Below the pieces are notes generated by a model, which was not told the origin of the DNA, searched no databases, and was given only the letters and a program-made list of their open reading frames with translations. 52,530 bases of DNA from positions 1 to 52,530 of the IMG/VR virus record IMGVR_UViG_3300033512_000519; one strand, 5' to 3'. This DNA is from a virus. Taxonomy: Duplodnaviria > Caudoviricetes. Both the position numbers and the translations under genes were made by a program. Of the stretch, positions 1,253 to 39,330 are shown piece after piece. The first letter of the stretch is position 1. Each line of letters starts with the position of its first letter.

Positions 1253-1536
1253 TCGTATTGACTTACATATTCATCCCCTTCGTGTCCGAAACCCATCGAT
1301 GATAATATCTCAATAACTTGATTTCTTTGATTCTCTGCTCTTTGCTTAAGTTCTGGAGTAATCAATCTTGTATCCTCTTCTAAAGAACTGTTCATTTCGT
1401 CGGTTTCATCTTCTGATAAATCTTCTGAACCCGGATACATAAACCCAAATCCCCAAGGGAAATAAGAATTTGAATTTACACTATATACATCATCGCCTAT
1501 TTGGGACTGGAGTTTCGATCTCACAGATTCAAACAT
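1249..1536 (-). CDS. Acidic hypothetical protein, probably the frameshifted C-terminal half of 1529-1825
   Basis: MFESVRSK... begins right after an A8 run. Removing one A fuses it to the upstream ORF (191 aa). Confidence 0.6.
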   Translation of the reverse strand: MFESVRSKLQSQIGDDVYSVNSNSYFPWGFGFMYPGSEDLSEDETDEMNSSLEEDTRLITPELKQRAENQRNQVIEILSSMGFGHEGDEYVSQYE

Positions 1537-1825
1537 TTTTTTTCTCATTTTTTGAAAGTTTACTAACGGCTCCGCCGTAAGCATCCTCGCAAGCCTCTTT
1601 AACAAAAAACATAATACCAGTACTAGATCCGTATGGAGCCATATCGACATCTCCAACTCCAAAATAATATTCTTGCGGATTAAGGAATTCTTTTTCTTCT
1701 TTAATAACTCTCTCAATTGTATATAAAGCTTTTTTGTTCCATCCCGCTTTTTTACCAATTGATTCCCATTCACTCTTCGATATCTTAATGGTTTTCTTAC
1801 CACTCGCCTTTTTTACTATTTTCAT
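1529..1825 (-). CDS. Leader-bearing putative internal head protein, N-terminal part
   Basis: First 33 aa are 26/33 identical to the N-terminus of 19761-20129. RBS GGAG upstream. Confidence 0.75.
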   Translation of the reverse strand: MKIVKKASGKKTIKISKSEWESIGKKAGWNKKALYTIERVIKEEKEFLNPQEYYFGVGDVDMAPYGSSTGIMFFVKEACEDAYGGAVSKLSKNEKKNV

Positions 1826-1858
1826 AGCTACTCCGTCTTAGTTTATTTACATTGTGAT

Positions 1859-1892
1859 AAAAAGAAAAGGTAGGGGAAACCCCTACCTTTTC
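1859..1892 (-). terminator. Rho-independent terminator of the capsid operon
   Basis: GC-rich stem AAAAGGTAGGGG / CCCCTACCTTTT followed by a T tract. Confidence 0.85.
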
Positions 1893-1898
1893 TAAAGC

Positions 1899-1967
1899 TT
1901 TTAATCAGTTAGATTAAGAACCAGCAGTTACTGTAATTTTCGCACAGGCATAGCTGTTGATAATTAC
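1899..1967 (-). repeat. 69-bp direct repeat copy B (capsid gene 3' end plus 15 nt)
   Basis: Matches 1184-1252 with 3 mismatches. Confidence 0.95.
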
Positions 1968-2780
1968 AATACCGATTTCCTCATATATAACCCAGCCGAG
2001 GCGGAGTTTCTTAGGATCGTCCGCTGGGAGAACAGTGATGTCCTGACGAATCGGGAAAGCACCAACGTACTCAGCAGGGGCGAGCAAGAATACCGTATCG
2101 GTAGGGCATTTTGAAGACACATGAATGTCAGCCGTGAACAAGTGTCCGAAGAGACCTGTTGTCAGAACTTCTTTCTGTGTTGCTTCATCGTACACCGTTT
2201 TACCGAAGTTACGGATATCCGCATAACGAAGAGCGTGGCAAATGATCTTACCAACGGTAAGGTCATGCTGCTCGATTGTTGCAAACGCCTGATTCAATGC
2301 GTTAAGTGTTAATGTGCCACCAGTTGAAACAACTGTATGAGCGGCATCAACTGCTGCATTAATAGCGTTGAAGATGTTCAGGTCTTCTTCCTTCTGGATC
2401 GCTTCTTTCGCCTTGATCTGCGCACGGTCTACAATGTAGAAACGGCGAGCCTTGATTTCAGAAAGACGAATCGTAGGATTCGTTGCGATTTCGAAAGTAG
2501 GAACCAAGATTTCCTCACCTTCTGTGATCATATCAGGAACGGCACCACGACGTGAAATCACGTGGGCTGTAGCTCTGACATCCTTCTCATAACGTGCATA
2601 AGCACCCTGAGGAAGCTCATCAACCATAAGCAGTTTACGACCAACCGCTTGATATTCCAAAGCTCTACGAATAGGTTCAACCATTGCCTGTGCAAGTGCC
2701 ACACGACCTTGAGGTGTATCTAACGCCTGAGCGATGAGCTTTTCTCTTTCAGCATTTACTGCTCTTTTATCTATAGCCAT
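1914..2780 (-). CDS. Major capsid protein (HK97 fold, no delta domain)
   Basis: LEYQAVGRKLLMVDELPQGA...EKDV and GWVIYEEIGIVIIN motifs. Follows protease and decoration genes; strong RBS and terminator. Size and order recall Bacillus phage G-type heads. Confidence 0.9.
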   Translation of the reverse strand: MAIDKRAVNAEREKLIAQALDTPQGRVALAQAMVEPIRRALEYQAVGRKLLMVDELPQGAYARYEKDVRATAHVISRRGAVPDMITEGEEILVPTFEIATNPTIRLSEIKARRFYIVDRAQIKAKEAIQKEEDLNIFNAINAAVDAAHTVVSTGGTLTLNALNQAFATIEQHDLTVGKIICHALRYADIRNFGKTVYDEATQKEVLTTGLFGHLFTADIHVSSKCPTDTVFLLAPAEYVGAFPIRQDITVLPADDPKKLRLGWVIYEEIGIVIINSYACAKITVTAGS

Positions 2781-2843
2781 TTTATTCTCTCCTTTAAGTT
2801 GTTATAGGGGTTTCCTATAAAGAACTAGTTATTGTTATTTACC

Positions 2844-3359
2844 TTAGATGGTAAGTTTGATTTCCAGATATGTATTGCTGTTATCACCACTAAGTGCCTG
2901 ATCGCCATTGATGTCAACGCCCGGTACGCCCGTAGGATAAGTACCCGCAGCCTGAATCAAACGACCAACCACGCCAGATGTGATTGATTCTGCCGCTGTG
3001 CAAAGCAAACCATTGTTTGCATAGAGAGCATCACCAATTGTCGCAGAAGCTACATTCGCACTGAACTGGTCAGTAGCAAATTCACCACCGCTATGATATA
3101 CTGTCATTTTGCCAGAAGCTTTTGTTTCATCGAAATAATCCGACGCTCTGGACTGCCAACCTGCTACAATGCCGGGCATTGCAGATGCGCTTGTTGATTT
3201 AGTGTCACCAGCAATACCATAAGGGGCAGTGAAGGTAGCGCTTTGCAGAACTACTTCGCCAGATGCGTTCAAAGACACAATCTGTCCTTTATTAATTGTT
3301 TGACCTGAGGCAACAGCTCTCTCAGCAGCGACTACATGATATCTTTCTATAAGAGCCAT
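2844..3359 (-). CDS. Head decoration/cement protein
   Basis: 171 aa, beta-rich, G/A/T-rich (KGQIVSL, GKMTVY, GDALY), directly upstream of the capsid gene. Confidence 0.75.
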   Translation of the reverse strand: MALIERYHVVAAERAVASGQTINKGQIVSLNASGEVVLQSATFTAPYGIAGDTKSTSASAMPGIVAGWQSRASDYFDETKASGKMTVYHSGGEFATDQFSANVASATIGDALYANNGLLCTAAESITSGVVGRLIQAAGTYPTGVPGVDINGDQALSGDNSNTYLEIKLTI

Positions 3360-3543: not shown

Positions 3544-3565
3544 TTTTTTATTTTCATTTTTCCAC

Positions 3566-3600
3566 AAAAAAAGCCTATCCAATTAAGGATAGGCTTTTTT
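3566..3600 (-). terminator. Bidirectional-type terminator after the protease/scaffold gene
   Basis: AAAAAAGCCTATCC-aattaa-GGATAGGCTTTTTT. Confidence 0.85.
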
Positions 3601-3617: not shown

Positions 3618-6600
3618 TTATTTTTCACCATATATTGTCAATTCTTTATCAAACTTAGAATTTCCAATTGTAAATGAACTTGCTAATCTTGTTGCCAAAT
3701 TGTCGCTATCGCTACCCATTGGTTTTGATTCCTGAACGATTGCTGGTATACCATGACCAGTTACAACAGTCTTTTCAGCAGAAGCCGTTTTAACTGTTTT
3801 CTCTGGGAACATGCGACCTGCTACGACCTGTATCTGATCGGTTTCAAATCCCATCAAAGATTGAACAACTGTGTCAAAGGTTTCTTTGTCGCTAGCTATT
3901 CTTTTATTTGAAGCCAACCATGCTGCTGTTTGAATCGCTTCGTTTTTGCGAGCATTGGCGATACGATCCATCTGGACTTGACGTTTCTGCTGTACCTGTT
4001 TTAACATTTCGTCATTAATTGCAGGCATATCTTTCTGCATTTCCTTTTTATGACCCATGTAAGAACTATCGACTGGTACATCTGGTGCATCAGCCTTAGG
4101 ATTAATATTGTCAGCTCCTTCATTTCCCATTTCCGCATTGCCACGAGGAATGCTTGGTTTAGCCATAGGAACATCAATATTATCCGCACCTTCATTTCCT
4201 ATAGTTGCTTTGGAACGAGGAACACCAGCTTCCACATCGCCTTCTACTGAATCAACTTCTTGCAATTTTTTGGCTTCTTTATTAAGCAGTTCCAAAATTG
4301 ATTCTTTTGAAACGCCTGCTACTTTGGCTAATTTTGTCGCAATACTATCAGCTACCTCTGCAATTACAGTACCTTTCATTTGGTTATTAATTTCGGGCAT
4401 TCCTTTACCTTTGTTAGCATGATCATATCCGCCTTGGATTTCTTTTTCATGCCCCATATAAGAGCTATCAACAGCTACTTCTGGAAGTCCAATTTTAGGA
4501 TTGATATTTTCTGCACTTTCGTTACCCATCTGTGCATTGGAACGAGGAATGCTTGGTTTGGCCATAGGAACATCGATATTATCGGCACCTTCGTTACGAA
4601 TAGTCGCCTTTGAACGAGGAACGCCAGCTTCTACATTCCCTTCGATGTCATTAACCAGTTTAGGTGTACTTGCCATCTTAAAAACCTCCTTATTTGTATT
4701 TCTTACTCTTTTACCATTCATAGCAAGTGCTATTTGTTTATTATCTTCGGTATTTTCTGTAACAACAGAATCTAATACCGTTTGATTAGATTGAGAAGAT
4801 TCTTTTTCTATTTTTTCTTCTTTGTCGTCGTCTTTTTCCTCTTTATCGTCTTTTGGACATTCGCAAGGATCGCATTCGCATTTTGCACATTCCTTACAAT
4901 CCTTACCAGCTTCTACTATTTCATTTTCAACTTCGGCTTCGATTTCAATAAAATCGGCTGGTGGTAAAGCAGATCCGATATCCGCTTCATCCGCTTCAGC
5001 TAATTTTCTTTGTCTAGCTTCCATCTTGGCTACCTTTTGCTGCTCCATCATACGATTAAGAGTTGACAAGTCTTCAACCTTTATGCCGATCTCTAAATCT
5101 TTTTCAATATCTTCAGCAAAAGCATGAACATAGACGTTATCTGTCATTTCTGACGCAAAACGTTTCTTAACGCAATTGCAAATCGCTTCCGCTTCTTTCA
5201 AGCCATGTCCTTCATTTTTAGTCTGATCTTCGATGCATTCATCCCAAGGATCTTTTTCCATTGATATTGAAGCCATTTTATTTAAATGACGTATTTTACG
5301 GAATCCTAATCTTTGAAGTTCGCCGCATACGCAATCAGCCATCAATTTGCCTTTGCAAGGTCCGAATGAAGCAACAGTGTCACCACCGTATTTTCTCGCT
5401 AAACGTTCCATACATGCGCTTTTTGGGAAGCTATCTGAATTAGCTGATGCTGTTTTCAACATTTTAGCAACTCTTAATTCAGAAGCAAATTTCAAAGCCT
5501 CTTCTTTGCATGACTCACAATTTTCAACATCTGGGAATATATCCCATTGCACTCTTAATACTCCAACCTCAGGATTGCTTGCGCTAACCATGAAATCTTT
5601 TTCTACAGGAGTTCCGCATGCATGACAAGAGAATTCGGTATGTCCGTCAGCCTCAACAGCAGGCTTGCAATGTTTAGCACCGCATGATGGGCAAACGTGT
5701 CCATGTGCCTTCTGGTTATTGGCAATTCTAACGATAGAACCTTTACCAATATTAGTCTGAGCCGCTACTGGAAGTGCAGGAACTTCTGGTGCTTCTGGAG
5801 AGTCTGGAGATTCTGCTCCCTCTTCTCCAACGCTCTTTGTAGGCTTGATTATCTTGAACTCAACTGTCTTCTTGAGAAGAGCTTCGTATTCTGCCGTACA
5901 AGCGTTGCAAGAACCTTTGATGTCTCCACCTTCGTTTGTAACATCAACGTCTGTACTTCCGCATTCTGGACAAACAGTCCAAGGCATTTGACGTTCTCCG
6001 TCAGTAGGAATATCAGTGTCATCCATTCCAGCCGCTGGGTCTGTGGTTAACGCCTGAACTGGATCTCCTCCGGGCATTGCACCGGGCAATCCTTGTTCTG
6101 GAGCACCCTGAGCACCCTGATCCATCCCCGGCATTCCGCCACCCATAGGTGATTGAGCCTTGCGATTTATTTTTGAAGATACTTTGCTAGACTGCTTGCT
6201 CATTTTCTTTTCAGATGATGCCCATGAGTTACCAAGACCTTCGCCAGACATATCGCCCTCTGGAACTGTTTCGTCAGCTGGAGGAGCCATATCTGCTCCG
6301 CCAATAGGAATTTCAGTTGTTCCTGTGCCAGTGTCGATATTCACTTCATTTTCCTCTGTATCCGTTTGAACAGCGATTTGAATAGTATCGCCATTGATTG
6401 TTACATTGGTAATAGAAGCCATACGGAGATTTTGAGAAGCAAGAGCGCCTTTTGCAAACGCTACAACATCCTTCTTAAATGAAGGGTTGTTTTTCGTTGT
6501 ACCCATCTCGCTAAACGAAGTCTGGATTACAGTGTCAGCCTTGCCCAAGCCTTCTTTATTAACTATCTCATTGGTATTATCTTTTTTTTCAACTGAAGCT

Positions 6601-9230
6601 AATATTTGCTTTCTTTCAGCATCTCTTTCTTCTCTAGAGGATTTAGCTTTTTTTGTTTGAAGAGCGGCACGTAATTCAGCTTTACGATTAACCTTAGCTG
6701 TTTTCTCTTGAGTTGCAGAAGCCAAAACTTCTTCAATTTTTTGAGAAACACTATCAATACCGTCCTGTCCTTCAGAAATAATATCTAAAGCATCAATCAA
6801 GATATCAGGATTGATTGTTTGATCGGCGGCATAAGTTCTCAAGCCATCGACAATTGAATTTGCGATGTCTTTATTACCAGCACTAGCAACCTTGAGGTTT
6901 TTATTCTGCCAGAAAGCTACTCTCTTGGCATAATCAATTTCTTCTCTTGGTTTAGAATCTTCAATTAAAGAAGTCGCCAAATTGTAACGGTTTTCTAAGG
7001 AATCAACTAAGCCAGCAGAAACTGAGCAAGCCTCATCAGGTGTACATCCAGTTTGAATAGCAGACTCGGCGATAACCTTGATTACGCATTCCATATGTTC
7101 GGAAGCACTTTTGAACATTGCAGCATTACGCTTGGCAGATCTAGCCCAAGGAGCGGAAGTGTTTTTAAGTTGATTTTCAGTTACCGTATCGGGTTCAGAA
7201 TTAACTCTTTTCTCATCTAATTGCTTTTGAGTAATCATATGGAGATCGGCGTTCTCTCTGTAATTACCTAACTGGTGCTCTTGAACACGATCAACAGTCT
7301 CATTTAGTCTTGGGTGATGTTTAATCCCCTCGTCGAGTTGAGCTTCAGTTAATTCGTCTTCTTCACCTGTACGCAAATCCTCTAATTGTTTTTGCGTGGT
7401 TGAATGTTTATCATCTTTCTGTCTAGCATGATAAAGATCTGAACGTTCCAGCTGTCCTTCCTGAACTTGATCTGGAGTTGTTTGAACTGTAATTGCTCCA
7501 GCTTTTCTACTGATATCGATCATCTTATTTACTCCTTCTTTTTGTTTGTTTAGATTATTCGCAAATGTATCCAGTAAGTTTATTGCTGCATCCTTAGGCG
7601 ACTCTATAATTTCATTTCTTTCTTCTTCTGTTAAATCCTCATATGTCCACACTCTTTTTTCCGACGATCCTTTATCTTCGGCGACAATGATGAATGATTC
7701 ACCTGTTTTGTTTACAGACAAACGATGTTCGTTGTTTTGTATTGACGGTACTTTCTTTATATACTCAAAAAATGATTGTTTTTCCTCCCACGAATTTGAT
7801 AAAACTTCAATTGCCTTCTGTTTTTGAGCTTTTTTCTCTGAAATAGTTCTTCTAGCCGCCATATCTATATCTCCTGTTTTATTAATTCTTTCACAAATAT
7901 TCAATGCTTTTCGTAAAAACTCCTTCCCATCTGCTAGTCTTTGATCATAAGGAACACTCTTTATTCTACAACTTACGTCAGAAATTCTTTGTATAGAACG
8001 ACTATCTTCTATTTCAGACGTTCTAGGTTTTACCGGAGCTGTTATTGGCAAATTAGGTGAAGACGCAGATGGTTTACTAGGCGATCCGCTTACTTTACCA
8101 ACTGCCATCGCCGTTTCAGAAGCCGCTGGAGTAGGCATAGGTGCTCCCTGAGGAGGTTGCATACCTGCTACTGGCGGTTCCATTCCTAAAGTTACATTAT
8201 CTGCTGCCCCCGCTGCTCCTGCTGCTCCACCACCTTCCATATTACCAACTGTACCGGGAACTTCTGCACCTTGTACATTACCATAACCAGCACCTACAAG
8301 TTCTTCCAACCAAGTTTGCAAATCGGACATTATTTTTACTAAGTCGCTAGAAAATTCCATCTCAACTTGCTTACGATTCTGAATAAGACTAACTGCAATT
8401 TGCTCTAATGTTTCAAGACACTGTTCTATCTGATCAATTTCTTCTTGACTGGCTTCCTTGTGAATTGCCGCTGTTTTAATCATACGAAATTCATTTTCCA
8501 TTGAAGCAACTCTTGACAAGAAATTATCGTTTGGTATAATTCCCTCAATATGACAATTAGGACAGGCAGGATCTACAACTGCACTTAATTCTATAAATTT
8601 CAAACCATGATTGTACTCAAATACAGTCTCGTCTTTAAATTGTTTTTCCTCGCCAGTCTTAACATTGCGAGCTTTTCCTGAGAATTTTCTGCCTTTTCTA
8701 TTTCTAATATGACTGCAATAGTCCTCAGTTCTTTCAGCTCTATTTCCGCAAATATTACAGCAGCTATATTCAACGCTACATCCCATTGAAACGCCTGTTA
8801 CATACTCTTCTTCAATTGACCGACATATGTGAGGATAAGCATCTCTATCAATGAAACAAATTGTATATATGGCTTTCTCTTCTGGAACAGCTTCTGCAAA
8901 AATAACTTTACCACGAGCATTTTCTACGTTTTGATTGTCGTGATTTGTAAAGAAAGGGACGCCTTCGAAACTCTTATATGAACCTAAAAGTTCTTCCCAA
9001 GAAAAATAATCGCCATTTGTATTAGGACAATCTGCCTCGATAGCTTTGGCTCTGAAAAACAACGCATTTGGATGCTTTTTGATCTCAGCTAGAACAATAT
9101 TTTCTTTTTCGCTTCCCGGCTCAATAATAACACGACCACCAGCGGTACGCATCATTTTATCTCCACCTTCATTAGCTTTAGCAAATGGATTAATTTCTGT
9201 AAACTTAAATGAGGCTTTTTTTAGTATCAT
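3618..9230 (-). CDS. Prohead maturation protease/scaffold polyprotein (1870 aa)
   Basis: N-terminal protease domain (NxNGDYF, FTNHDN, GVSMGC, CxxC...CxH, FIELSAVVDPA). Then ExQL repeats, zinc ribbons, a duplicated 67-aa unit and a coiled-coil scaffold-like C-terminus. Upstream of decoration and capsid genes. Confidence 0.85.
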   Translation of the reverse strand: MILKKASFKFTEINPFAKANEGGDKMMRTAGGRVIIEPGSEKENIVLAEIKKHPNALFFRAKAIEADCPNTNGDYFSWEELLGSYKSFEGVPFFTNHDNQNVENARGKVIFAEAVPEEKAIYTICFIDRDAYPHICRSIEEEYVTGVSMGCSVEYSCCNICGNRAERTEDYCSHIRNRKGRKFSGKARNVKTGEEKQFKDETVFEYNHGLKFIELSAVVDPACPNCHIEGIIPNDNFLSRVASMENEFRMIKTAAIHKEASQEEIDQIEQCLETLEQIAVSLIQNRKQVEMEFSSDLVKIMSDLQTWLEELVGAGYGNVQGAEVPGTVGNMEGGGAAGAAGAADNVTLGMEPPVAGMQPPQGAPMPTPAASETAMAVGKVSGSPSKPSASSPNLPITAPVKPRTSEIEDSRSIQRISDVSCRIKSVPYDQRLADGKEFLRKALNICERINKTGDIDMAARRTISEKKAQKQKAIEVLSNSWEEKQSFFEYIKKVPSIQNNEHRLSVNKTGESFIIVAEDKGSSEKRVWTYEDLTEEERNEIIESPKDAAINLLDTFANNLNKQKEGVNKMIDISRKAGAITVQTTPDQVQEGQLERSDLYHARQKDDKHSTTQKQLEDLRTGEEDELTEAQLDEGIKHHPRLNETVDRVQEHQLGNYRENADLHMITQKQLDEKRVNSEPDTVTENQLKNTSAPWARSAKRNAAMFKSASEHMECVIKVIAESAIQTGCTPDEACSVSAGLVDSLENRYNLATSLIEDSKPREEIDYAKRVAFWQNKNLKVASAGNKDIANSIVDGLRTYAADQTINPDILIDALDIISEGQDGIDSVSQKIEEVLASATQEKTAKVNRKAELRAALQTKKAKSSREERDAERKQILASVEKKDNTNEIVNKEGLGKADTVIQTSFSEMGTTKNNPSFKKDVVAFAKGALASQNLRMASITNVTINGDTIQIAVQTDTEENEVNIDTGTGTTEIPIGGADMAPPADETVPEGDMSGEGLGNSWASSEKKMSKQSSKVSSKINRKAQSPMGGGMPGMDQGAQGAPEQGLPGAMPGGDPVQALTTDPAAGMDDTDIPTDGERQMPWTVCPECGSTDVDVTNEGGDIKGSCNACTAEYEALLKKTVEFKIIKPTKSVGEEGAESPDSPEAPEVPALPVAAQTNIGKGSIVRIANNQKAHGHVCPSCGAKHCKPAVEADGHTEFSCHACGTPVEKDFMVSASNPEVGVLRVQWDIFPDVENCESCKEEALKFASELRVAKMLKTASANSDSFPKSACMERLARKYGGDTVASFGPCKGKLMADCVCGELQRLGFRKIRHLNKMASISMEKDPWDECIEDQTKNEGHGLKEAEAICNCVKKRFASEMTDNVYVHAFAEDIEKDLEIGIKVEDLSTLNRMMEQQKVAKMEARQRKLAEADEADIGSALPPADFIEIEAEVENEIVEAGKDCKECAKCECDPCECPKDDKEEKDDDKEEKIEKESSQSNQTVLDSVVTENTEDNKQIALAMNGKRVRNTNKEVFKMASTPKLVNDIEGNVEAGVPRSKATIRNEGADNIDVPMAKPSIPRSNAQMGNESAENINPKIGLPEVAVDSSYMGHEKEIQGGYDHANKGKGMPEINNQMKGTVIAEVADSIATKLAKVAGVSKESILELLNKEAKKLQEVDSVEGDVEAGVPRSKATIGNEGADNIDVPMAKPSIPRGNAEMGNEGADNINPKADAPDVPVDSSYMGHKKEMQKDMPAINDEMLKQVQQKRQVQMDRIANARKNEAIQTAAWLASNKRIASDKETFDTVVQSLMGFETDQIQVVAGRMFPEKTVKTASAEKTVVTGHGIPAIVQESKPMGSDSDNLATRLASSFTIGNSKFDKELTIYGEK
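4035..4634 (-). repeat. Two 201-bp (67-aa) internal repeats in the protease/scaffold gene
   Basis: 4434-4634 and 4035-4235, VEAGVPRSKATI...DSSYMGHxKExQ, 55/67 aa identical. Confidence 0.9.
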
Positions 9231-9234: not shown

Positions 9235-11205
9235 TTATTTCCCTTGATATCTCTTAATTACCATCTCAACCCCTATGGCACTTCGATTTTTACCATGAGA
9301 CCTTAAATCTTTTGCAATTTTAATTAACGCATTTAATGTTCTAGCAACCGCAATTCCCTTTTTGGCTTCTTCCTCTTCTTCATCTTGCGAAACTTCAGAC
9401 AAATCTGGCAACGTTTTTACAGAAGGCATACTAACATCTACCATCTCATCTTCTGGAGTTTCTTCCACAACATCAAATCCTAATAATTCTTGTTCTTGTT
9501 GTGTAAGGTAATCTCCTTTATTTTCTTCATTAATGTCTACAATTTCTTCTTCATCTTCCAAAATTGATTCTTCATCTTCCACAAACGTTCCATTTTGTAT
9601 ATCTTCGAGTTCAAAACTAGTAAAGTTGCGATCCAGTTTATGAGTATCAAATATTTCAGGAACTTTAATTAATTTAGCTCCAGTTATAGGGTCAACCAAT
9701 TTTTTAGCAGATTGATTTTCAAACGGTAAAGCACTATCTATTGCACTACTTACATACAAAGACGCAGCTCTCATTGCAGAATCCATGTCAAAAAATCCTC
9801 TTTCTCCGATTATTGACTCCAAATCCGATTCAAATTCAGGAAGTACTTCTTCATATTTTTTCTGACTAACTATATTTCCTTGATCATCTTTTACCAAGGA
9901 ATAATTTTTAATATCATTTGTTAAATAAACAACAAATTCTTCATCAATAGGCTTAAATGACGCCTGTTGTTTTTTACCAAGTTTTGAAAATCTATCTTTG
10001 TTGATAAAGTCAGTTACAGCTTTTGGGTCATCTGTTCCAACACTAATAATAGCAGCTAATACTTCTTTTTCAAGCGTCAACGTGTTTATAACGTCATCAG
10101 AAGTCTTTAATGCTGTTGTTTGTTGAGCACCAAATGTTTTTTCGCTATATATTCCAGAAACAGATGGATTAGAATTACCATATAACGAACAAAATTCATC
10201 GGCGAATTTCTGATCATTTTGTAAATACTTGGATATTTCACTGTTGGCTATATTATATTTTTTGGCTAAATGAATGCCAATTGTCTGAATCGTTTTAGCT
10301 TGATCTGGTTGTGCTGAAAAAGCTTTGATGATTTTAAAAATTCCAGATGGTTTTAATTTCCATTTACTGCCGGTTCCAATAACAGTACTATATGGAGTCT
10401 CTTGATTATTGTTGATTGCAGCCTCGTAATCATTTTTTGCAAGATAATTCTTATCTATATCAATTACATCATAAACCATTCTTTCCCACTGATCACCATC
10501 TTCTGAATCAGATCCTCTTTTTGCTCCAGTCCTATGCTTTACAGTCATTTTGAAATCAGTTTCGTCCAAAATCTTCCAAATCCCCTCTCTTTTCATCTCT
10601 CCAGTCCATTTACCATTAGGATCTCTAACTTTGGTCAAAACAGATGTGCCAGTAATACGATCATTATAAACGTCATCTTTGCTTTTTATTCCTGATGGTA
10701 AATTTATATTTTTCTTCCTGTTGGTTTCAGAAAGTCCAAGGTCACGTTCAATTTTCGCAAAGTTATTCTCTTTTGAATTTACAAAGAAAGATAAGAAATT
10801 TCGTATACTATCTGAATCTGTACTAGTTAATCGTTGCGTAAAATATCCAAATCTGTTCTCGTTTATTTCAGGTTTGTTTCCCTTGTAAGGTCCGATAGAC
10901 ATAAGATATAAGCCGTATGCAGGATGATAACCAACATATATTTTAAAAAACCTTTCAATCATTTCTGGAGATGTATTAAAACGATCTTGATAATAATCCG
11001 TATACTTATCTTTAAAAACCAGAGAAAACTCTTTAATAGCTGAATTTAAAGAAGGATTTAAAGCACTAAAGTCGTTCCATTCCCTATTTGATCCATTTTG
11101 TATATCATCTAAACTCATCCATGTAAATTCGGGTCTGTAATTCATGGATTTAACACCCATGGATTCTTTATGAAGATTAAATGTATTATTAGCTTTCGTC
11201 TTCAT
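9235..11205 (-). CDS. Hypothetical head-region protein with acidic tail
   Basis: Likely start at 11205 (MKTKANNTFNLHKES). C-terminal LIKIAKDLRSHG...A..VE helical motif. Confidence 0.7.
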   Translation of the reverse strand: MKTKANNTFNLHKESMGVKSMNYRPEFTWMSLDDIQNGSNREWNDFSALNPSLNSAIKEFSLVFKDKYTDYYQDRFNTSPEMIERFFKIYVGYHPAYGLYLMSIGPYKGNKPEINENRFGYFTQRLTSTDSDSIRNFLSFFVNSKENNFAKIERDLGLSETNRKKNINLPSGIKSKDDVYNDRITGTSVLTKVRDPNGKWTGEMKREGIWKILDETDFKMTVKHRTGAKRGSDSEDGDQWERMVYDVIDIDKNYLAKNDYEAAINNNQETPYSTVIGTGSKWKLKPSGIFKIIKAFSAQPDQAKTIQTIGIHLAKKYNIANSEISKYLQNDQKFADEFCSLYGNSNPSVSGIYSEKTFGAQQTTALKTSDDVINTLTLEKEVLAAIISVGTDDPKAVTDFINKDRFSKLGKKQQASFKPIDEEFVVYLTNDIKNYSLVKDDQGNIVSQKKYEEVLPEFESDLESIIGERGFFDMDSAMRAASLYVSSAIDSALPFENQSAKKLVDPITGAKLIKVPEIFDTHKLDRNFTSFELEDIQNGTFVEDEESILEDEEEIVDINEENKGDYLTQQEQELLGFDVVEETPEDEMVDVSMPSVKTLPDLSEVSQDEEEEEAKKGIAVARTLNALIKIAKDLRSHGKNRSAIGVEMVIKRYQGK

Positions 11206-11596
11206 GCTCGGATTTCCACTTTTCAACTTTATCACCAACCCCATATAATTGACTAGAAGTATAAGGTCTCAATTCTCTAGGCGTATCTACTCCCCAAGTA
11301 TCCTTCGCATAATTAGCAGCTTCGTCCATACTATCAAAATACTTGCCGCCTGCTGAATAAGTTGCTGGCAATCTTCTTACACCAGCAAAAAATTTAGGTC
11401 TTGGGTGATGTACGTCTGCTGGTCCTAAAATGCAAAAATACCATACGCCATCTTCAGATTCACCTTCAAAACGGAAATAGCTGCCAGTCCCAATAACTTC
11501 TTCAAACATATCTTTTAGGAACTGAGTTTTTTGAGTATAAACCTGTTCCCATTTTATATTCTTTTCAATAAGTTTTTGTCGTGCTTCTTTGTTCAT
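11189..11596 (-). CDS. Hypothetical protein (135 aa)
   Basis: Clean ORF downstream of an AGG-N19-GAA promoter. Confidence 0.75.
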   Translation of the reverse strand: MNKEARQKLIEKNIKWEQVYTQKTQFLKDMFEEVIGTGSYFRFEGESEDGVWYFCILGPADVHHPRPKFFAGVRRLPATYSAGGKYFDSMDEAANYAKDTWGVDTPRELRPYTSSQLYGVGDKVEKWKSEHEDES

Positions 11597-15376: not shown

Positions 15377-15397
15377 CGCATCACTCCTTTTTTGAAT

Positions 15398-28422: not shown

Positions 28423-31400
28423 TTAAACCCATCCCGTCCTAACTAGAATTGGAGCTGGTAAAGCCATCCTTAATCCTTCGTTTGCCGCCCATGTAGCTCC
28501 CGCCAAACAATCGCTCAAATCGTCCAACCCAACATCGCCATTTTTATCAGGTAATATAGTATATCCTCTTTTTGTTTTCTTAAACTTAAGCTCTTTCAAT
28601 TCACCAAGCAATAAATTTGTCTCTGAACAATTATCATACAGTAATATTTCCGGCTCAGGCTGATACAGCATCATATTACGTAAATTCTGATACACTTTAC
28701 ATTTAACTCTATCATTAAACGCTATTTGGTGACAATTAATTCCATGTCCTCTTAACTTTTGTACACTATGAACTGAATGATAATCGTCATATGTTACGGA
28801 CATTGGGTGAAATCTTGCACAAATTTTTATCATTTCATTATCAATATCATCAAACAACAGTCCTAATCCGGGCATTGGCTTCCATAACCAAACACCAGCT
28901 AACGAGCATCTTATTCTTTTTTGACCCTGCGGAGTAACATATCTCTGCTTCGCAACCATAACTGCCGCATAATTATTGCTTTTCTTAGCTGGGTCAACGT
29001 GTATATAATAATTAGTGGCTGGCATTGGTCTGGTATGAGGTCCAATATCGAACTTCAAACATCTATCTACAGCCCCCTCTTCAAAATAATTACCATACGC
29101 ACCGCTAGTTGACCATTGTGCTCCAAATTCTATAGTAAACATTTCTGGATTTGCATTGCGTTCCTTCATCATTTCTGGATCTGAATAAGAAACGTCCAAA
29201 TTTATATCCCAAGTAGGCAATTGGAATGATATACATGAATCTGCAATTGATTTTTCACTCGACGTTGCCTCGTTAAAAGCATCATAAAAGGCTCCATTTC
29301 GACTATTTGGAGAAGATATCATCACTACCTTGCCAGCTTTATATTTATAAAACTTTGATAATGAGGGCTTTAAACGATTAACAAAATATTTCCCTGTTAC
29401 CTTTCCTGTTTCATCATAGAACGCAATTTCGTCAAAAAGCAACAAAATAGCACTATATCCAGCTAATGAGTCAGGATTACTATGTCCGCACAGCAGTAAA
29501 ATTGACCCCGGAATACTAAGATTTGCTCCAGACTGCTTCTTTTGTAAATCACGGTCTGTATATAACCTAACTGAATCGGCTGTTTCCTTTGCGACACGAT
29601 TTTGGAAGAATGGCGAGTTTCTTATTCTTGCCTGAACTTGACCGAACAGACGCCCCGCTTGTTTTTGAGACAAAGCGACGTTGATTATTGCTATTTCGTC
29701 ATCATCTGGCAAGTTGTAATATCTATGTGGATCTCCGTTGTTAATAACTAATAATTTATAAGCCTCGTAAGCAGTAATAATCGATGCCATGAAAGTATTA
29801 TGTGAAATTATATCTCCACCTATAATATGATGAGGATCAACTTGTAAATCAACGGTTTTCGTTATCCCAACATGAATAACTTCATCAACAGTATCCCATT
29901 TCAAATCAGACTTAGCGCTATTTACAATAAATTCATTTCCGTAATTTTCACCAATTTCAATCAATTTGTCACGATTAGCTGAATACTCTTGTCTTAAACG
30001 TCCACTGATTGTTGTCGTTAATGCATTAATGGAAATGTTTTTATCATTTGATTCTTTTTTCAAAGCGTTCCATATTCCATGGGGGATGTTGTCAAATGGA
30101 CTTTTAGGTTTTGATCTTAGTTGTGATATTTCAACCACTTGATTGACTATTTGCTCTTTGGAAAAAATATTGATTTCATCTCTGAATTTTTTTAAACAAT
30201 CTTTTCTAACAATCGACAATCTCCAACTATCTTTATATCCGTCTTGATATTTTGCTTTAGAATATCGAACTGTAGCATGTATACCAAATTTTAAAAGCAA
30301 ATGTCTTATATCCATAACCAATTGTTTTGATGCCAAAGTACATCCGATAAGCGTTTTTTTAATTTTGTGTTCAGAATCAAGAAAACTATCAACAGATCCC
30401 CATCCATCACATCCGAAAAAACGAGACAAAAATGCCGATACTTCCGCCTTGGAACCTTCAAGTATACATTGTGGAACCCTCTTGTCTACAGATTTTTTTC
30501 CATAAACGCCCTCTGCTTTTAACCACTCCTTGACTTCATTCTGCTGGCTTCCTTTTTGATTGAATCGTCCACTGTCTTTAACTACCACATAATCATAATT
30601 TTCACGATGATTTACTGAATATCCTATGAACTCCTCGTTTATTAATCTTTTAAAATCTTGCAACATGACATCTGAACCAGTTGAATAACCAATATGATGC
30701 GTAATACCTCCATCTCCTTGAAAATGTCCTAGTAAAGCCGCTCTATTAGATCCTACCCTACCACGACCAAATAATTCTGTTTTATCTGCAACTGCAATTT
30801 TGTCGCCAATTTTTATATCCTTTAATTTTAAGAATTTTGGTTCGTTAAAATCGTCTCTCCATACCAAATAAGGATGATTCCACGATGATGTCTCTTCGAT
30901 TCCCCTTGACGTTCTTAATGTATAGCATTCAACCGCTCCATTATCTTTAGCCTTAACGTCATATGTAACCGATCTTTTCCAAATAGTTGTGTCATACGTA
31001 CAAATCCCTATTTTCTCTCCAGCACTAAGCCTGTCGCATAAAGATCGAAAAGTTAAAGAACCTTCCGTTGTTGCTATTAAATCATCCTCGCTTCTGCATT
31101 TCGATCCACGTCTTCCGAGTACCAAAACTAATTGCGTAAATGGATTATATTTTGCAGCTTTCTCTTTTTCGTGCAATTTAGTAATAACATCTCTTAGATT
31201 TCGTTCATAGGTAATTCCATCTAATTCTATATTGTCTTGTCTCTCATATAGCCATTCCCATTCGGATTGCGATAATTTTAGATCTTCGTTACCGATAGTA
31301 CCTTTATAAAAAGCCTTTAATATAACTGATTGACCGGGATAAATCTTAAATTCAATTTCCTCCATATTGAATTCATCAGTCTCTTCTTCTTTCTTAGCAT

Positions 31401-31587
31401 TCTCTTTTGCGTTTCTGTCCTCGTCATATGGAATACCTAAAAACTTAGGGTCGCTACAAAACGTCATTATGTCAACTATATTGTAGCGATCATCGTTCTC
31501 AACAAGTTCAGGATTATCACATTCTATCTTCCTAAGAGCTTCAAATAACGGGTTTCTTTTTGTTTCTTCTGTTTTTATCTTAGGCAT
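28423..31587 (-). CDS. terL: Terminase large subunit containing an intein
   Basis: Walker A GRRGSK|T, Walker B LLLFDEIAF, ISSP coupling motif, nuclease HVDPA and DDLSD. Likely start MPKIK at 31587 after GGAGG. Confidence 0.92.
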   Translation of the reverse strand: MPKIKTEETKRNPLFEALRKIECDNPELVENDDRYNIVDIMTFCSDPKFLGIPYDEDRNAKENAKKEEETDEFNMEEIEFKIYPGQSVILKAFYKGTIGNEDLKLSQSEWEWLYERQDNIELDGITYERNLRDVITKLHEKEKAAKYNPFTQLVLVLGRRGSKCRSEDDLIATTEGSLTFRSLCDRLSAGEKIGICTYDTTIWKRSVTYDVKAKDNGAVECYTLRTSRGIEETSSWNHPYLVWRDDFNEPKFLKLKDIKIGDKIAVADKTELFGRGRVGSNRAALLGHFQGDGGITHHIGYSTGSDVMLQDFKRLINEEFIGYSVNHRENYDYVVVKDSGRFNQKGSQQNEVKEWLKAEGVYGKKSVDKRVPQCILEGSKAEVSAFLSRFFGCDGWGSVDSFLDSEHKIKKTLIGCTLASKQLVMDIRHLLLKFGIHATVRYSKAKYQDGYKDSWRLSIVRKDCLKKFRDEINIFSKEQIVNQVVEISQLRSKPKSPFDNIPHGIWNALKKESNDKNISINALTTTISGRLRQEYSANRDKLIEIGENYGNEFIVNSAKSDLKWDTVDEVIHVGITKTVDLQVDPHHIIGGDIISHNTFMASIITAYEAYKLLVINNGDPHRYYNLPDDDEIAIINVALSQKQAGRLFGQVQARIRNSPFFQNRVAKETADSVRLYTDRDLQKKQSGANLSIPGSILLLCGHSNPDSLAGYSAILLLFDEIAFYDETGKVTGKYFVNRLKPSLSKFYKYKAGKVVMISSPNSRNGAFYDAFNEATSSEKSIADSCISFQLPTWDINLDVSYSDPEMMKERNANPEMFTIEFGAQWSTSGAYGNYFEEGAVDRCLKFDIGPHTRPMPATNYYIHVDPAKKSNNYAAVMVAKQRYVTPQGQKRIRCSLAGVWLWKPMPGLGLLFDDIDNEMIKICARFHPMSVTYDDYHSVHSVQKLRGHGINCHQIAFNDRVKCKVYQNLRNMMLYQPEPEILLYDNCSETNLLLGELKELKFKKTKRGYTILPDKNGDVGLDDLSDCLAGATWAANEGLRMALPAPILVRTGWV
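29797..31098 (-). mobile_element. Intein with LAGLIDADG homing endonuclease (434 aa)
   Basis: Starts CRSEDD, block B SWNHPY, LLGHFQGDGG and FLSRFFGCDG motifs, ends IISHN, followed by Thr. Confidence 0.92.
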
Positions 31588-32446
31588 TTTGTTCCTCCAA
31601 GATATAAATACCGTTTGATTCATCAGTCATAATACCTTTTAATTTTTCACTTTCATATATCGAACCATTACTCAATTTATTATCACGAATAGAAAATGTA
31701 TAAATTCCATTGCTACACATAATATATAATATGTCTTTTTTGAACATCAGTTTTTTCGGCTCTATTAATATTTTTTCGGATGGATGACCTGCAATTATAG
31801 ATATACTGTTTTTATCAACCTTTCTAACTAATCCGCAAAATGAATCTGACATAAACACACTACCATTATATGTAACCATTCCCGATGGAATTCCAATAGA
31901 TGTGTTTTTTAATGTATCTCCAATAGAAAATCTACACTTTCCATCTCCAGTTATATGATAAAAAGCAGAGCTATGATAGAAAAACAACTTATGTAAATCA
32001 GGATAGGCAATAAAAAAATTCTCATTACCAGCTGGCGACAACAAAGCTTTTGAATCAAAAGGAACGTTTTTAAGCATTTGGGATACAGAAGATTTAATAA
32101 CACCTCTGAAACTATTACTGGTTTTATTATTTTTTATTTTAATTGTTCGAACATCTCTTCCGCCATCTTCACATATAAATATGGTTTTTGTACCGTGATT
32201 ATAACCTATTCCAGATAAACTGCCAAAAGTAGGGTTGTCTCCATTACGGATTTTCCCATCAGATCCCTTCCAAAAAGGATTGTTGACGCCTTTTTCGGTT
32301 AACAAACCCAATTTATTACCATGAGTATACACTATACCTAGATCGTTTACCCAACACGCATCTTGTATTTCGGTATCGGTTTCAATTGTTTTTATTAAAT
32401 CTATTTTTTTAGTACCGACTGTTTTTTTAGAAATATTATATTTCAT
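31580..32446 (-). CDS. NHL-like beta-propeller protein
   Basis: Repeated blades (PSGMVTYNGSVFMSDSFCGLVRKV, IFICEDGGRDVRTI). Confidence 0.65.
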   Translation of the reverse strand: MKYNISKKTVGTKKIDLIKTIETDTEIQDACWVNDLGIVYTHGNKLGLLTEKGVNNPFWKGSDGKIRNGDNPTFGSLSGIGYNHGTKTIFICEDGGRDVRTIKIKNNKTSNSFRGVIKSSVSQMLKNVPFDSKALLSPAGNENFFIAYPDLHKLFFYHSSAFYHITGDGKCRFSIGDTLKNTSIGIPSGMVTYNGSVFMSDSFCGLVRKVDKNSISIIAGHPSEKILIEPKKLMFKKDILYIMCSNGIYTFSIRDNKLSNGSIYESEKLKGIMTDESNGIYILEEQNA

Positions 32447-37648: not shown

Positions 37649-37793
37649 ATATTCCTCCGATGAACTTCTTTACAGCATTTATATCAAAACGTGATTTGGT
37701 TTTTTCATATTGAGTTTTAGGATCTTCCAACGGCTTGTTTTCAATATTTATCTTTGCTCCGCTTGGAATATAAACAACGGTTTTGTTACTCAT
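37629..37793 (-). CDS. Small 54-aa protein missing from the ORF track
   Basis: MSNKTVVYIPSGAKINIENKPLEDPKTQYEKTKSRFDINAVKKFIGGIYGRKRD*. ATGA overlap with the upstream stop; overlaps the ATPase start. Confidence 0.7.
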   Translation of the reverse strand: MSNKTVVYIPSGAKINIENKPLEDPKTQYEKTKSRFDINAVKKFIGGIYGRKRD

Positions 37794-38233
37794 CCTAAAG
37801 ACTCTCTTAAATTTTCCATTAACAATTCTTTCAAAAACGATACATGAAATTCAAAAAACAATCTACCTTTGGTTGTACTTACTCCAAATCTTTTATGGCT
37901 ACCGTGTTCTTCAACTATCGAATTGTAATCATTTATACTATACTCTTGCAATTTTTCAACAAATAACGGCAAATTTTCTCTTACGATAAGTTCTCCTATG
38001 AAATCAACAATGAAATAAGAAAAGAATTCATTTGAGAAAACAGAATAATCTTTATATTTCAAACCAATATCTGTCATGGAAATAGAAAACTTGATATCGC
38101 CTTCTTTATCCCAATCTCCTAAAATGATATCATTAGGGGGATTATTGATTATTGATTTCAATATTTTTCTATAATTCGAATCTTTATTTGCAATGAACTG
38201 TTGCAATTTTTTAACTTCTCCAAACGAATCCAT
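37790..38233 (-). CDS. Hypothetical protein (147 aa)
   Basis: AGGAGG RBS. TGTATAAT at 38261-38268. Confidence 0.75.
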   Translation of the reverse strand: MDSFGEVKKLQQFIANKDSNYRKILKSIINNPPNDIILGDWDKEGDIKFSISMTDIGLKYKDYSVFSNEFFSYFIVDFIGELIVRENLPLFVEKLQEYSINDYNSIVEEHGSHKRFGVSTTKGRLFFEFHVSFLKELLMENLRESLG

Positions 38234-38299
38234 AAAACCTCCTATCCGTTAATTTGGGTTATTATACAAATAGGTCTGGTTTAATAACGAGAAAACGCT

Positions 38300-38491
38300 T
38301 TAAAAACGCCATTTTATTTTAACACCAAAGACTATACTTTCTTTCACTTTGTCTTTCCATTCTTCAATTTTGTCTTTGTTTTCTTCGTGACTATCATCTG
38401 TCGAATCAGGTTGACTTATCCAATCAAAATGTGGTCGGACGTGATTCTTTATCCAATTGACTATTTTTTTATTTAAAGGATGTTTATTCAT
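38300..38491 (-). CDS. Small protein (63 aa) ending GVKIKWRF
   Basis: AGG-N19-GAATA promoter at 38503-38529 favours the ATG at 38491. Confidence 0.55.
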   Translation of the reverse strand: MNKHPLNKKIVNWIKNHVRPHFDWISQPDSTDDSHEENKDKIEEWKDKVKESIVFGVKIKWRF

Positions 38492-38529
38492 GATAATAGA
38501 ATTATTCTTCAAAATGGAGTAAAAGTCCT
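38477..38529. promoter_or_regulatory. Overlapping opposite-strand pair of AGG-N19-GAA promoters
   Basis: Plus 38477-38504 (GAATTA) and minus 38503-38529 (GAATA). Confidence 0.65.
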
Positions 38530-39330
38530 ATGTATTATAATTGGTATAAAGTAGCGAAGATGCAGCAAGAAGCTGGAATAAAAGATTATATTCCGGCTTC
38601 ATTAATGTCTGCTATCGTTTCAGTAATGAGTGGTTCCGCTATTTGGAATGCTGCTGAAAGATTTAAAGTTGACCCATCAGATATTGAAAACGCTTTGAAT
38701 AACCCTCAGCTTATACAATATGTACAAAATGATAAACCGAAATTAAATATGCAAAATTATCAATCAAACTTACAACCAAAACCAAACTTACAGCCAAAAC
38801 CAACGCTACAACCTAAACAAAACCTTACTAAAAACAAAACAACCCCTTTAGTTACTCAAGCTACTTTGACTACTGAATTGCTAAATAGCTTGAAAAAATT
38901 AGAAGGAACCCTTGAATATCAAAAATCTATTGGCAATTTCAGAGGTGGCAAATTTTATCCTTACAAAGATAAGAATGGGTTTTCAACAATTGGATACGGA
39001 CATAAAATAATCAATGGGGAAAACTTTGCAAAAGGTATAACTCCAGAAAAAGCAGATCAGTTATTGAAACAAGACGCTCAAAAATCAATAGATCAAACAA
39101 ATCGTTTAATTTCAACAATACCTGTAACTCCAGATGCTGCTCAAATTTTAGCTAATATGGTTTTTCAAATGGGTGAAATTGGTGTAACAAATTTTAGCGG
39201 TATGTTGAAATCTCTAAAAAACCAAGATTATCAAACTGCTGCTATAGAAATGTTAGATAGTAAATGGGCAAAACAAGATTCTCCAACTAGAGCAAAAGAG
39301 TTAGCAAGTCTTATGTCCAAACAAAAATAA
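38530..39330 (+). CDS. GH24/T4-like lysozyme with N-terminal NWYKxA leader and LQPKP repeat linker
   Basis: KKLEG...YPYKDKNGFSTIGYGH, NMVFQMG, EMLDSKWAKQ...RA. Confidence 0.88.
   Translation: MYYNWYKVAKMQQEAGIKDYIPASLMSAIVSVMSGSAIWNAAERFKVDPSDIENALNNPQLIQYVQNDKPKLNMQNYQSNLQPKPNLQPKPTLQPKQNLTKNKTTPLVTQATLTTELLNSLKKLEGTLEYQKSIGNFRGGKFYPYKDKNGFSTIGYGHKIINGENFAKGITPEKADQLLKQDAQKSIDQTNRLISTIPVTPDAAQILANMVFQMGEIGVTNFSGMLKSLKNQDYQTAAIEMLDSKWAKQDSPTRAKELASLMSKQK

Follow-up and report, generated by a model that had tools for sequence, protein, structure and literature searches.

Putative capsid-targeting tags and head-protease cut sites in an uncultivated megaphage related to Bacillus phage G

In a 52,530-nucleotide stretch of viral DNA (hereafter the window), head proteins shared a linear motif consisting of a hydrophobic residue, Lys or Arg, any residue, Ala, and then Ser, Gln or another small residue ([KR]-x-A-[SQ]). 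In addition, unrelated proteins began with common N-terminal tags, among them a basic leader of 33 amino acids (aa). We propose, with a probability of roughly 55%, that the tags are removable capsid-targeting propeptides and the motifs cut sites of the head protease, comparable to the system of phage T4, on a polyprotein whose layout resembles that of herpesvirus pUL26. The proposal was built from sequence comparisons.

Results

The window was the whole of IMG/VR record IMGVR_UViG_3300033512_000519 (52.5 kb). Its completeness according to CheckV was 12%, so it would correspond to a piece of a genome of roughly 400–450 kb. It is the head-morphogenesis region of an uncultivated megaphage that is kin to Bacillus phage G. 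The head-morphogenesis block occupied about 1.5–33.8 kb of the minus strand and encoded the capsid protein, a cement-like protein, a polyprotein of 1870 aa, the portal, an AAA ATPase, a trypsin-like peptidase and a 1066-aa protein. The closest cultivated relative was Bacillus phage G (Donellivirus, 497.5 kb), whose gp27 was 55% identical to the capsid protein of the window. Closer relatives were four IMG/VR fragments (G001–G004, 8–20% complete) and many metagenome contigs; G001, G002 and G004 were largely syntenic with the window. Homologues of the polyprotein were present, among others, on contigs of 340–512 kb. A megablast search with 20 kb of the window against a phage collection gave no match. 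The sequencing runs listed with matches were two DNA runs from microbial-mat metagenomes, and no RNA runs were listed.

The 25 minus-strand open reading frames (ORFs) of the head block (10251 aa) contained 37 [KR]-x-A-[SQ] sites, whereas 10.0 ± 3.2 were expected from within-protein shuffles; none of 2000 shuffles reached 37. The 21 other ORFs of the window contained 2 sites against 3.6 expected. This comparison between head and non-virion ORFs had been proposed before the count in an earlier note on this DNA. For the narrower pattern K[TKEV]AS, 13 sites were observed in the head block, compared with 1.2 expected. NrdJ had one [KR]-x-A-[SQ] site, and ClpP, two ATPases and the intein-bearing 1066-aa protein had none. 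Since the motif had been defined on the same window sequences that were counted, it was re-tested on relatives, with residue-order controls and by conservation. The polyprotein orthologues contained 15 sites against 2.5 expected (G001), 17 against 2.4 (G002) and 17 against 2.2 (G004), and 120 polyprotein homologues had a mean of 11.6 sites with 2.44 expected. Because these homologues are not independent, the residue-order and conservation controls were added. When the four elements of the motif were arranged in all 12 orders, enrichment was confined to [KR]-x-A-[SQ] (4.8-fold), the next best order reaching 1.8-fold and the others 0.6- to 1.2-fold. The polyprotein of the window itself had 16 sites in this order and 0–5 in the others. 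An artefact of composition or helix formation was rejected based on the shuffle enrichment and the residue-order control.

The conservation of the sites pointed in the same direction. In an alignment of 56 polyprotein homologues, the Ala of the 16 sites (P1) was conserved at 0.80, compared with 0.46 for the other 163 Ala (p 6e-5), and the Lys or Arg at P3 at 0.85, compared with 0.53 for other Lys and Arg (p 5e-5). The position following Ala (P1') was occupied by S (297), A (83), Q (62), G (56), N (36), K (29) and E (27). Of the 39 sequences in an earlier alignment, 38 retained the site at residue 1023. For sites in the other head proteins, P3 was kept in orthologues at 0.80 versus 0.56, and P1 at 0.65 versus 0.49.

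The 1870-aa polyprotein (3618–9230, minus strand) matched the head maturation protease family phrog_18299 (E 1.4e-16), and each of its 16 sites lay in a different sequence context. The protease domain covered about residues 7–242 (8505–9212) and was bracketed by sites at residues 4–7 and 240–243. Other sites were located at residues 258, 1814 and 1848, the last two preceding a conserved C-terminal tail. The motif thus brackets the protease domain and closes the leader described below, as would be expected of a maturation cut site. If all sites were cut, the first pieces of the polyprotein would be 6, 236 and 18 residues long, and the domain would be released as residues 7–242. At the start of the polyprotein, K4 and A6 were conserved in at least 90% of sequences, and H97 and S148 were invariant in 56 sequences.

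The N-terminal domain aligned with phage G gp19 (hhalign, E 6.5e-38), which carries K-V-A-S at residue 248 and K-I-A-S at residue 274, after its protease domain. The alignment with HK97 gp4 was weak (hhalign, E 0.071) and paired H97 with H65 and S148 with S114, which we take to be the catalytic residues of gp4. Pfam Peptidase_S78_2 gave no more than a weak match in one relative (E 0.085). A sequence search with the protease domain against the PDB gave no match, and neither did a shallow alignment of the domain compared with HK97 gp4 by hhalign. The HK97/XkdF-type Ser/His domain at the start of the polyprotein is the likeliest candidate for the cutting enzyme.

Three other features of the polyprotein were observed. 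Many homologues (P0045, P0048 and others; L055, L063) contained an intein right at the conserved G-V-S-M-G serine motif. In the C-terminal third, a stretch of about 80 aa was duplicated, and Cys-x-x-Cys pairs occurred several times. At the start of the protease domain (residues about 27–40), a leader-like stretch with the consensus K-T-A-S-G-x-I-x-I-E-P aligned with L-V-K-T-A-A-K-V-V-K-I-A-P at residues 41–53 of phage G gp19. This stretch may represent one more site of N-terminal processing, or else a docking strand held in common.

Exactly two full copies of the 33-aa leader were present in the window, both on the minus strand. They opened a 98-aa protein (1529–1825; leader coded at 1727–1825), the cargo of which had no relatives, and a 122-aa protein (19761–20129; leader coded at 20031–20129), in which V-K-T-A-S occupied residues 4–8 and K-K-A-Q residues 31–34. 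The two leaders were identical at 26 of 33 residues, although 15 of the 33 codons differed synonymously, 11 being identical and 7 differing non-synonymously. Nucleotide identity was 70/99 within the leader, 28/99 in the following 99 nucleotides and 12/60 upstream, and similarity stopped at KKA. The earlier note had described this shared leader, its synonymous differences and its end after KKA, and the codon and nucleotide comparison agreed with that description. The 98-aa gene started 88 bp downstream of the capsid gene, past a terminator-like hairpin (1893–1863). Strong hairpins of this kind occurred at 1863–1893 (after the capsid gene), 3567–3600 (after the polyprotein gene) and 18572–18609 (after the gene for an acidic 265-aa protein), but their total in the region was not above that of shuffles.

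The leader was widespread among related sequences. A word-index search returned 39 candidates of 67–214 aa, all 39 of which opened with the leader and continued with unrelated sequence, and one longer protein (241 aa) also carried the leader. A leader hidden Markov model, a check suggested in the earlier note, was run on 49 fetched loci and the window and gave 130 instances. After three duplicate loci, truncated genes and partial matches had been dropped, 106 unique leader proteins remained (67–570 aa, median about 130 aa), whose post-leader parts formed 89 cargo clusters by blastp. A profile of 85 leaders matched 1767 clusters among 1.84 billion representative proteins at E ≤ 1e-3 (549 at E ≤ 1e-10), and in the best 150 matches the leader nearly always extended from residue 1 to residue 30-odd. 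Some metagenome proteins (in P0161–P0178) had two or three leader modules in the layout leader–cargo–leader–cargo, with later modules that were internal and lacked a start Met. The leader was absent from phage G and a 485-kb uncultured phage (0 copies, while positive controls matched), and none of 43 candidate leader stretches in GTDB contigs (one genome per species) was confirmed. Pfam and PHROGs contained no family for it, and a search of the ESM Atlas with the leader returned nothing above chance. A strict leader DNA pattern, which excluded S-K-K-E-W variants, found 2 stretches in viral contigs. A PDB profile search gave only a non-significant match, at leader residues 15–30, to a stretch of Cks1 (M-S-E-S-E-W-R-N-L-G...G-W, E about 1).

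Codon usage indicated what is maintained in the leader. Across 88 genes, the entropy of codon positions 1/2/3 was 0.59/0.44/1.14 in leader codons 1–29, compared with 1.88/1.88/1.82 in post-leader codons 34–50. Leader Ser alternated between AGY and TCN codons, and 37% of conserved leader residues used different codons even inside one array. The 60 nucleotides upstream were unconserved except for a few positions near the start codon. Since third codon positions were free and amino acids fixed, the leader is under protein-level selection. Gene conversion as the means of its upkeep was rejected because of the synonymous codon divergence, and a secretion signal because the leader is basic (mean charge +6.8) and not hydrophobic. 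The leader has the consensus site V-K-T-A-S at its own start (residues 4–8) and usually ends in W-[MIL]-K-x-A-Q; it may therefore be cut at both ends. In 67 of 104 leaders, [KR]-x-A followed the second Trp in either of two registers, and Gln came next in 25 of the 67.

The sampled leader cargoes were mostly unrelated, small and acidic. Acidic cargo made up 87%, with a mean charge of −6.3, and the charge per 100 aa was −5.8, compared with −2.8 in other small ORFs (p 5e-5). In a Pfam scan of 149 proteins, 11 families were detected with one member each, including AAA, ART-PolyVal, LRV, zinc ribbon and TMEM65, and most leader cargo was unannotated. The ART-PolyVal match, on leader protein P0040, scored 35.7 bits (Pfam cut-off 31.2). 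A 570-aa leader protein of G002 (L004:10001–11710) had a weak, sub-threshold match to the ArdC N-terminal domain (E 0.0096).

Leader genes were co-oriented with head genes and tightly packed in arrays of 2–7. One cassette site lay downstream of a DUF192 gene (20141–20962, minus strand), whose product carried R-A-A-Q immediately after the domain (residue 116). Between this gene and the gene for a 75-aa protein (19491–19718, minus strand), there was one leader gene in the window, two in G004 and none in G001. Likewise, the interval between the gene for an 815-aa protein and the next conserved gene held six leader genes in G001 and one non-leader gene in both the window and G004. A role of the leader proteins as precursors of ribosomally synthesized and post-translationally modified peptides was rejected, given the cargo length of 67–570 aa, the head-operon setting and the absence of enzymes of such pathways from the Pfam scans of the window ORFs.

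Shorter tags were found on other proteins. Among the 259 complete ORFs of the window and G001–G004, motif starts were 3.2-fold more frequent per position among residues 1–12 than in the rest of the proteins (p 1e-6), and the Ala of the motif was residue 7 in 15 of the 259. NWYKxA, which the earlier note had reported as common to a lysozyme and the 815-aa protein, occupied residues 4–9 of the lysozyme (38539–38556) and residues 238–243 of the 815-aa protein (23715–23735 including the next Gln). Further unrelated proteins in G001, G002 and G004 opened with [NS]WY[KR]xA, confirming it as a recurring tag. According to ad hoc patterns, about a dozen G004 proteins started with M-K-I-Y-R-[LI]-A-Q or close variants, and about six had [NS]-W-Y-[KR]-x-A-Q. 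In phage G, 8 exact starts coded for M-K-R-L-[IVM]-K-K, compared with 0 for the reversed control pattern, and a looser pattern of the M-K-R-L-I-K-K type recovered about 13 ORFs. Several tagged proteins of phage G and G004 continued directly after the tag with an H-G-T-type segment, for which matches to the ADP-ribosyltransferase clan were weak and sub-threshold (PARP, E 2.5e-4 to 0.16; others, 0.02–0.06). The same kind of cargo, ADP-ribosyltransferase-like, thus stood behind three tags, which argues that the tags are exchangeable labels. When the proteins of G004 and G001 with short tags were compared with Pfam (E ≤ 1e-3), the sole match was one sub-threshold YtzH-like hit.

A different tag, FNL, was located near the N-terminus of three window proteins, all on the minus strand, and was conserved in their orthologues. 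It was at the extreme N-terminus of a 399-aa protein (27138–28337; tag at 28311–28337), within residues 1–15 of the 75-aa protein (tag at 19674–19718; conserved in G001, G002, G003 and G004) and near the start of a 656–669-aa protein (9235–11244; FNL at 11173–11181; retained in G001 and G004). A fourth FNL start was found on a 1116-aa protein in G001. The earlier note had included the FNL starts with the other tags; the three shared starts were recovered, but FNL does not fit [KR]-x-A. Short repeats resembling T-[EQ]-K-Q-L-E were present both in the 399-aa protein and in residues about 590–690 of the polyprotein.

The remaining products of the head block, all encoded on the minus strand, differed in their motif content. 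The major capsid protein (288 aa, 1914–2780) matched phrog_2522 (E 2.7e-72), belonged to the HK97 fold family and had no delta domain. Its N-terminus contained K-R-A with Ala at residue 7 (2760–2768) and was identical in G001 and G004; K-R-A was absent from G003 and phage G. A cement/decoration-like protein (2844–3359) had weak matches to Phage_cement_2 and phrog_1731 and no motif sites. The portal protein (11678–13948) carried K-V-A-S at residue 108, where K-V-A was kept in 4/4 orthologues. A C-terminal DUF559/endonuclease-like region (E 1.5e-10) was present at portal residues 626–732, and the portals of G001 and G002 are much longer (1143 and 1833 aa, respectively), which points to further insertions. 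Two proteins of 455 and 332 aa (14009–16396) both had motif sites, the one at residue 109 of the 332-aa protein being [KR]-T-A-[SQ] in 3/3 orthologues. The very acidic 265-aa protein (18630–19427), a scaffold or core candidate, contained V-K-T-A-S at residues 28–32, retained as [KR]-T-A-[SG] in 3/3 orthologues. A 154-aa protein (21232–21696) had two sites, with R-x-A at residue 140 kept in 4/4 orthologues; in G001, the six-gene leader cassette lay just upstream of its orthologue.

The 815-aa protein (21999–24446), a candidate two-enzyme protein, contained a nucleotidyltransferase head domain at residues 606–728. An HExxH motif was seen by eye in its G001 orthologue, for which a zincin is a candidate reading only. 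Ahead of the nucleotidyltransferase, the protein had N-W-Y-K-Y-A-Q, K-T-A-S (residue 369) and R-F-A-Q (residue 463), and two of these three sites were kept in orthologues. The trypsin-like serine peptidase (351 aa, 24877–25932; Trypsin_2, 2.2e-19) had no motif sites. We take the 1066-aa protein (28423–31623) to be the terminase, by its position only; it contained LAGLIDADG and intein-splicing domains, whereas its orthologues in G001, G002 and G004 were about 600 aa long, short enough to lack the intein insert.

Near 38.5 kb, the coding strand and the guanine–cytosine skew switched. The lysozyme encoded there (38530–39330, plus strand; Phage_lysozyme, 2.6e-14) had N-W-Y-K-V-A as its tag, followed by a hydrophobic segment, and its PHROG matches were to tail or internal-virion lysozymes and to endolysins. 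Given this segment and the matches to both endolysin and virion-lysozyme families, the lysozyme need not be capsid cargo. The plus strand from 38.5 kb on (e.g. 42550–50404) encoded proteins of 1113 and 663 aa and several small ones with signal-peptide-like N-termini, which were without [KR]-x-A-[SQ] sites. The third protease gene of the window encoded a ClpP-like protease (51778–52347, plus strand; CLP_protease, 5.8e-46), also without sites.

Discussion

We hypothesize that the motif is the maturation cut site of the head protease, which would cut after Ala. In a fixed register, with Ala at residue 7, this putative cut site opens many unrelated proteins, and it also stands at both ends of the leader. 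The tags would bind a component of the assembling core, either the protease–scaffold polyprotein or an acidic core protein, and would be cut off once they had brought their cargo into the prohead. The freed cargo would remain in the capsid and leave with the DNA, on the model of the T4 capsid targeting sequence and internal proteins. The earlier note had likewise regarded the tags as addresses coupled to a cut site. The modularity of the tags, the protein-level selection, the enrichment in head proteins and the sites bracketing the protease support that view, and the sites at both ends of the leader and the leaders without a junction site are corrections to it. Similarly, its description of the motif was upheld by head enrichment, conservation and the bracketing of the protease domain, but not every site was kept, and the FNL tags fall outside the motif.

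Several observations weigh against the proposed targeting and cleavage. No [KR]-x-A was present at the junction in 35 of 104 leaders, and the N-terminal site of the leader would fall in an apparent beta-hairpin turn (by eye). About 17 of the best 150 profile matches had two or three leader modules per protein, some of them internal, and such internal repeats fit a retained domain equally well as a polyprotein of cargo units. P1' was variable at the sites, and several window sites were not kept in orthologues. In phage G, the enrichment of the motif was modest (head module, 15 against 5.7 expected; elsewhere, 94 against 75.6). The acidic cargo contrasts with the basic internal proteins of T4, and the TMEM65 membrane domain on one cargo is odd for capsid contents unless that cargo functions in ejection or as a conduit. 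For the lysozyme, an endolysin tethered to the membrane may be explanation enough. As for the enzyme, membership of the S78 family was not established by Pfam (E 0.085) or by hhalign with HK97 gp4 (E 0.071). The window encodes two proteases besides the HK97/XkdF-like domain, the trypsin-like peptidase and ClpP, and the trypsin-like peptidase could be the cutting enzyme instead. Finally, the available part of a 2025 multi-omics paper on phage G (PMC12484599) mentions neither tags nor cleavage.

Some of these points would be accommodated if the motif were a true cut site and the 33-aa leader a retained or regulatory module instead of an address, an explanation we consider rather unlikely. The leader would then be a small beta-beta-alpha domain that binds DNA or capsid or oligomerizes, or a pro-piece that masks acidic cargo, and any packaging would depend on other features. 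Consistent with this, a cut site would require neither the length of the leader nor nearly so much conservation, the leader occurs in internal and repeated copies, one third of the leaders are without a junction site, and its charge of +6.8 is opposite to that of the cargo (−6.3). On the other hand, the leader is nearly always at residue 1, it has consensus sites at both ends with similarity stopping exactly at the second, and the 7-residue tags hold the same position on other proteins.

We regard it as improbable that motif and tags are uncleaved anchoring peptides, with multiple [KR]-x-A-S copies in the polyprotein and single ones on cargo, that attach to the portal or to the inside of the HK97-fold shell in the manner of encapsulin cargo-loading peptides. 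The many copies in the scaffold-like protein, the centring of conservation on P3 and P1 with a loose P1', and the HK97 fold family of the capsid protein would suit such anchors. However, the sites bracket the protease domain in two lineages, as autoprocessing sites do, and the fixed register and the Ala-then-small pattern match the sites of the herpesvirus protease–scaffold, which has the same domain order. Moreover, encapsulin cargo-loading peptides are usually C-terminal.

That the N-terminal tags are degrons read by an AAA+ protease of the phage (ClpXP, for example), timing the turnover of accessory proteins without involvement of the capsid, seems very unlikely. Some ClpX N-terminal recognition signals are Met-basic-hydrophobic, and the window has genes for ClpP and AAA ATPases. 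Purified phage G particles also contained the ClpP and ClpX of that phage, according to the available text of PMC12484599; however, degrons would leave unexplained the 16 conserved internal sites of the polyprotein, the restriction of the motif to the head block and the cassettes inside head operons. The view of the shared N-termini as functionless by-products of cassette recombination or expression optimization, to which the tandem arrays and a codon identity of 0.63 within a locus versus 0.52 between loci might point, is hardly credible in light of free third positions with fixed amino acids, AGY/TCN switches at Ser, unconserved upstream DNA and the conservation of the leader across 1767 clusters.

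If the tags are indeed removable capsid-targeting propeptides, they would be of practical use. Hardly any megaphages have been cultivated, and for the majority of megaphage genes no function has been assigned. A tag that predicts capsid passengers would sort many unknown proteins into one class that acts before phage gene expression, and factors for anti-restriction and host takeover would be expected among these capsid-delivered proteins. Phage G, which is cultivated, carries the tag in its short form together with the same protease. A working tag could serve to package foreign proteins in very large capsids, a use to which the T4 tag has already been put. As a tentative extension, the leader and its 7-residue relatives might constitute a general capsid-delivery code of phage-G-like megaphages. 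The proteins of the 1767 leader-bearing clusters and those with short tags would then be loaded, trimmed after Ala and injected before gene expression as a first-wave anti-defence and takeover arsenal. If this were true, an Ala/Ser cut on a protease–scaffold fusion would be shared with herpesvirus assemblin, which would suggest that cut specificity and fusion architecture are ancestral in the HK97–herpesvirus lineage and not a herpesvirus peculiarity. The Ala-then-small motif on a protease–scaffold fusion is also a data point on the kinship of phage and herpesvirus maturation.

Comparison with known systems

Literature searches did not find the motif strings or such tags in huge phages; supplementary proteomics tables were outside the search. 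The observations were confirmed and reach well beyond the window, and it is plausible that the system of the window is capsid targeting with prohead-protease processing, a known kind in a new variation.

In T4, according to the available text of PMC9026906, capsid targeting sequences of 10–19 residues are lost from internal proteins, and a 7-residue propeptide is lost from Alt, an injected ADP-ribosyltransferase. The internal proteins are poorly conserved, relatives carrying other proteins with tag-like N-termini instead (PMC9026906). The window and its relatives resemble this situation in the ADP-ribosyltransferase among the cargo and in the conserved head genes beside hypervariable cassettes (PMC9026906). 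They also resemble it in the short N-terminal propeptide common to unrelated proteins (here 106 leader proteins with 89 cargo clusters), in the poor conservation of cargo genes between relatives, and in a tag that ends at a motif (67/104 leaders) also found in core, scaffold and shell proteins, here the putative protease motif. The T4 prohead protease gp21 cleaves after Glu, whereas the motif described here has Ala at P1 and Lys or Arg at P3, and there is no homology of tag or motif. Additionally, the tag set here is different and includes a basic module of 33 aa that looks folded and has a site at either end; cargo is acidic here and basic in T4, and the protease is fused to a scaffold-like region of 1600 aa. 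Literature searches found no virion proteomics or N-terminomics for this clade.

Herpesvirus pUL26 is a protease–scaffold fusion that is cut after Ala, and the release and maturation sites of pseudorabies virus are Y-L-Q-A/T and V-Q-A/S (PMC4498786, available sections). The predicted cut site of the polyprotein likewise has Ala followed by Ser, comparable to the Ala then Ser/Thr at the herpesvirus cut (PMC4498786). The domain order of the polyprotein fits that of pUL26, a putative serine protease standing ahead of a scaffold-like region, with candidate sites here right after the protease and about 20–55 residues from the C-terminus, before a conserved tail, like the maturation site. The polyprotein has 16 sites instead of 2–3, and the likeness drawn here is one of layout and motif. 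P3 is basic here, whereas it is hydrophobic in the herpesvirus protease consensus.

Phage G shares with the window the capsid protein (55% identity), a homologous protease domain (E 6.5e-38) followed by K-x-A-S sites, and a recurrent start of the M-K-R-L-I-K-K type, in some cases followed by ADP-ribosyltransferase-like domains. It differs in that it has no 33-aa leader and a weaker enrichment of the motif, and in that gp19 is a separate protein of 300 aa and not the start of a giant polyprotein.

The FNL tags are probably a second motif that resembles the L27/Prp system and would use another protease, as judged from the residues shared with that system. The N-terminal extension of L27, MLxx(D/N)LQ(F/L)F'A(S/H)KK, is cut between Phe and Ala by the cysteine protease Prp, and in staphylococcal phage 80alpha the L27 motif is present on the capsid and scaffold proteins (PMC9405229, available text). 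In the FNL tags, which lie at the extreme N-terminus of head-module proteins, N-L, Ala, K-K and an aromatic residue are spaced as they are in L27 (PMC9405229). The clearest case is the tag of the 399-aa protein, which by eye has K, N, L, A, K and K in common with KLNLQFFASKK (PMC9405229). The match, as judged by eye, is partial, several tags having Arg or another residue in place of Ala. No member of the Prp family turned up in general Pfam scans of the window ORFs, in which no search was aimed at Prp. The FNL tags perhaps hint at the kind of host.

Polyvalent proteins, as described in the available part of Iyer et al. 2017 (PMC5512222), are enzymatic effectors encoded among virion genes and predicted to be injected. 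Comparable features here are the ART-PolyVal domain on P0040 and, in a virion-gene context, the HExxH motif (by eye) and nucleotidyltransferase of the 815-aa protein. Most cargo here is small, single-domain and unannotated, in contrast to polyvalent proteins. Delivery, too, would differ: the route proposed here uses removable tags, whereas polyvalent proteins are associated with MuF or portal fusions (PMC5512222).

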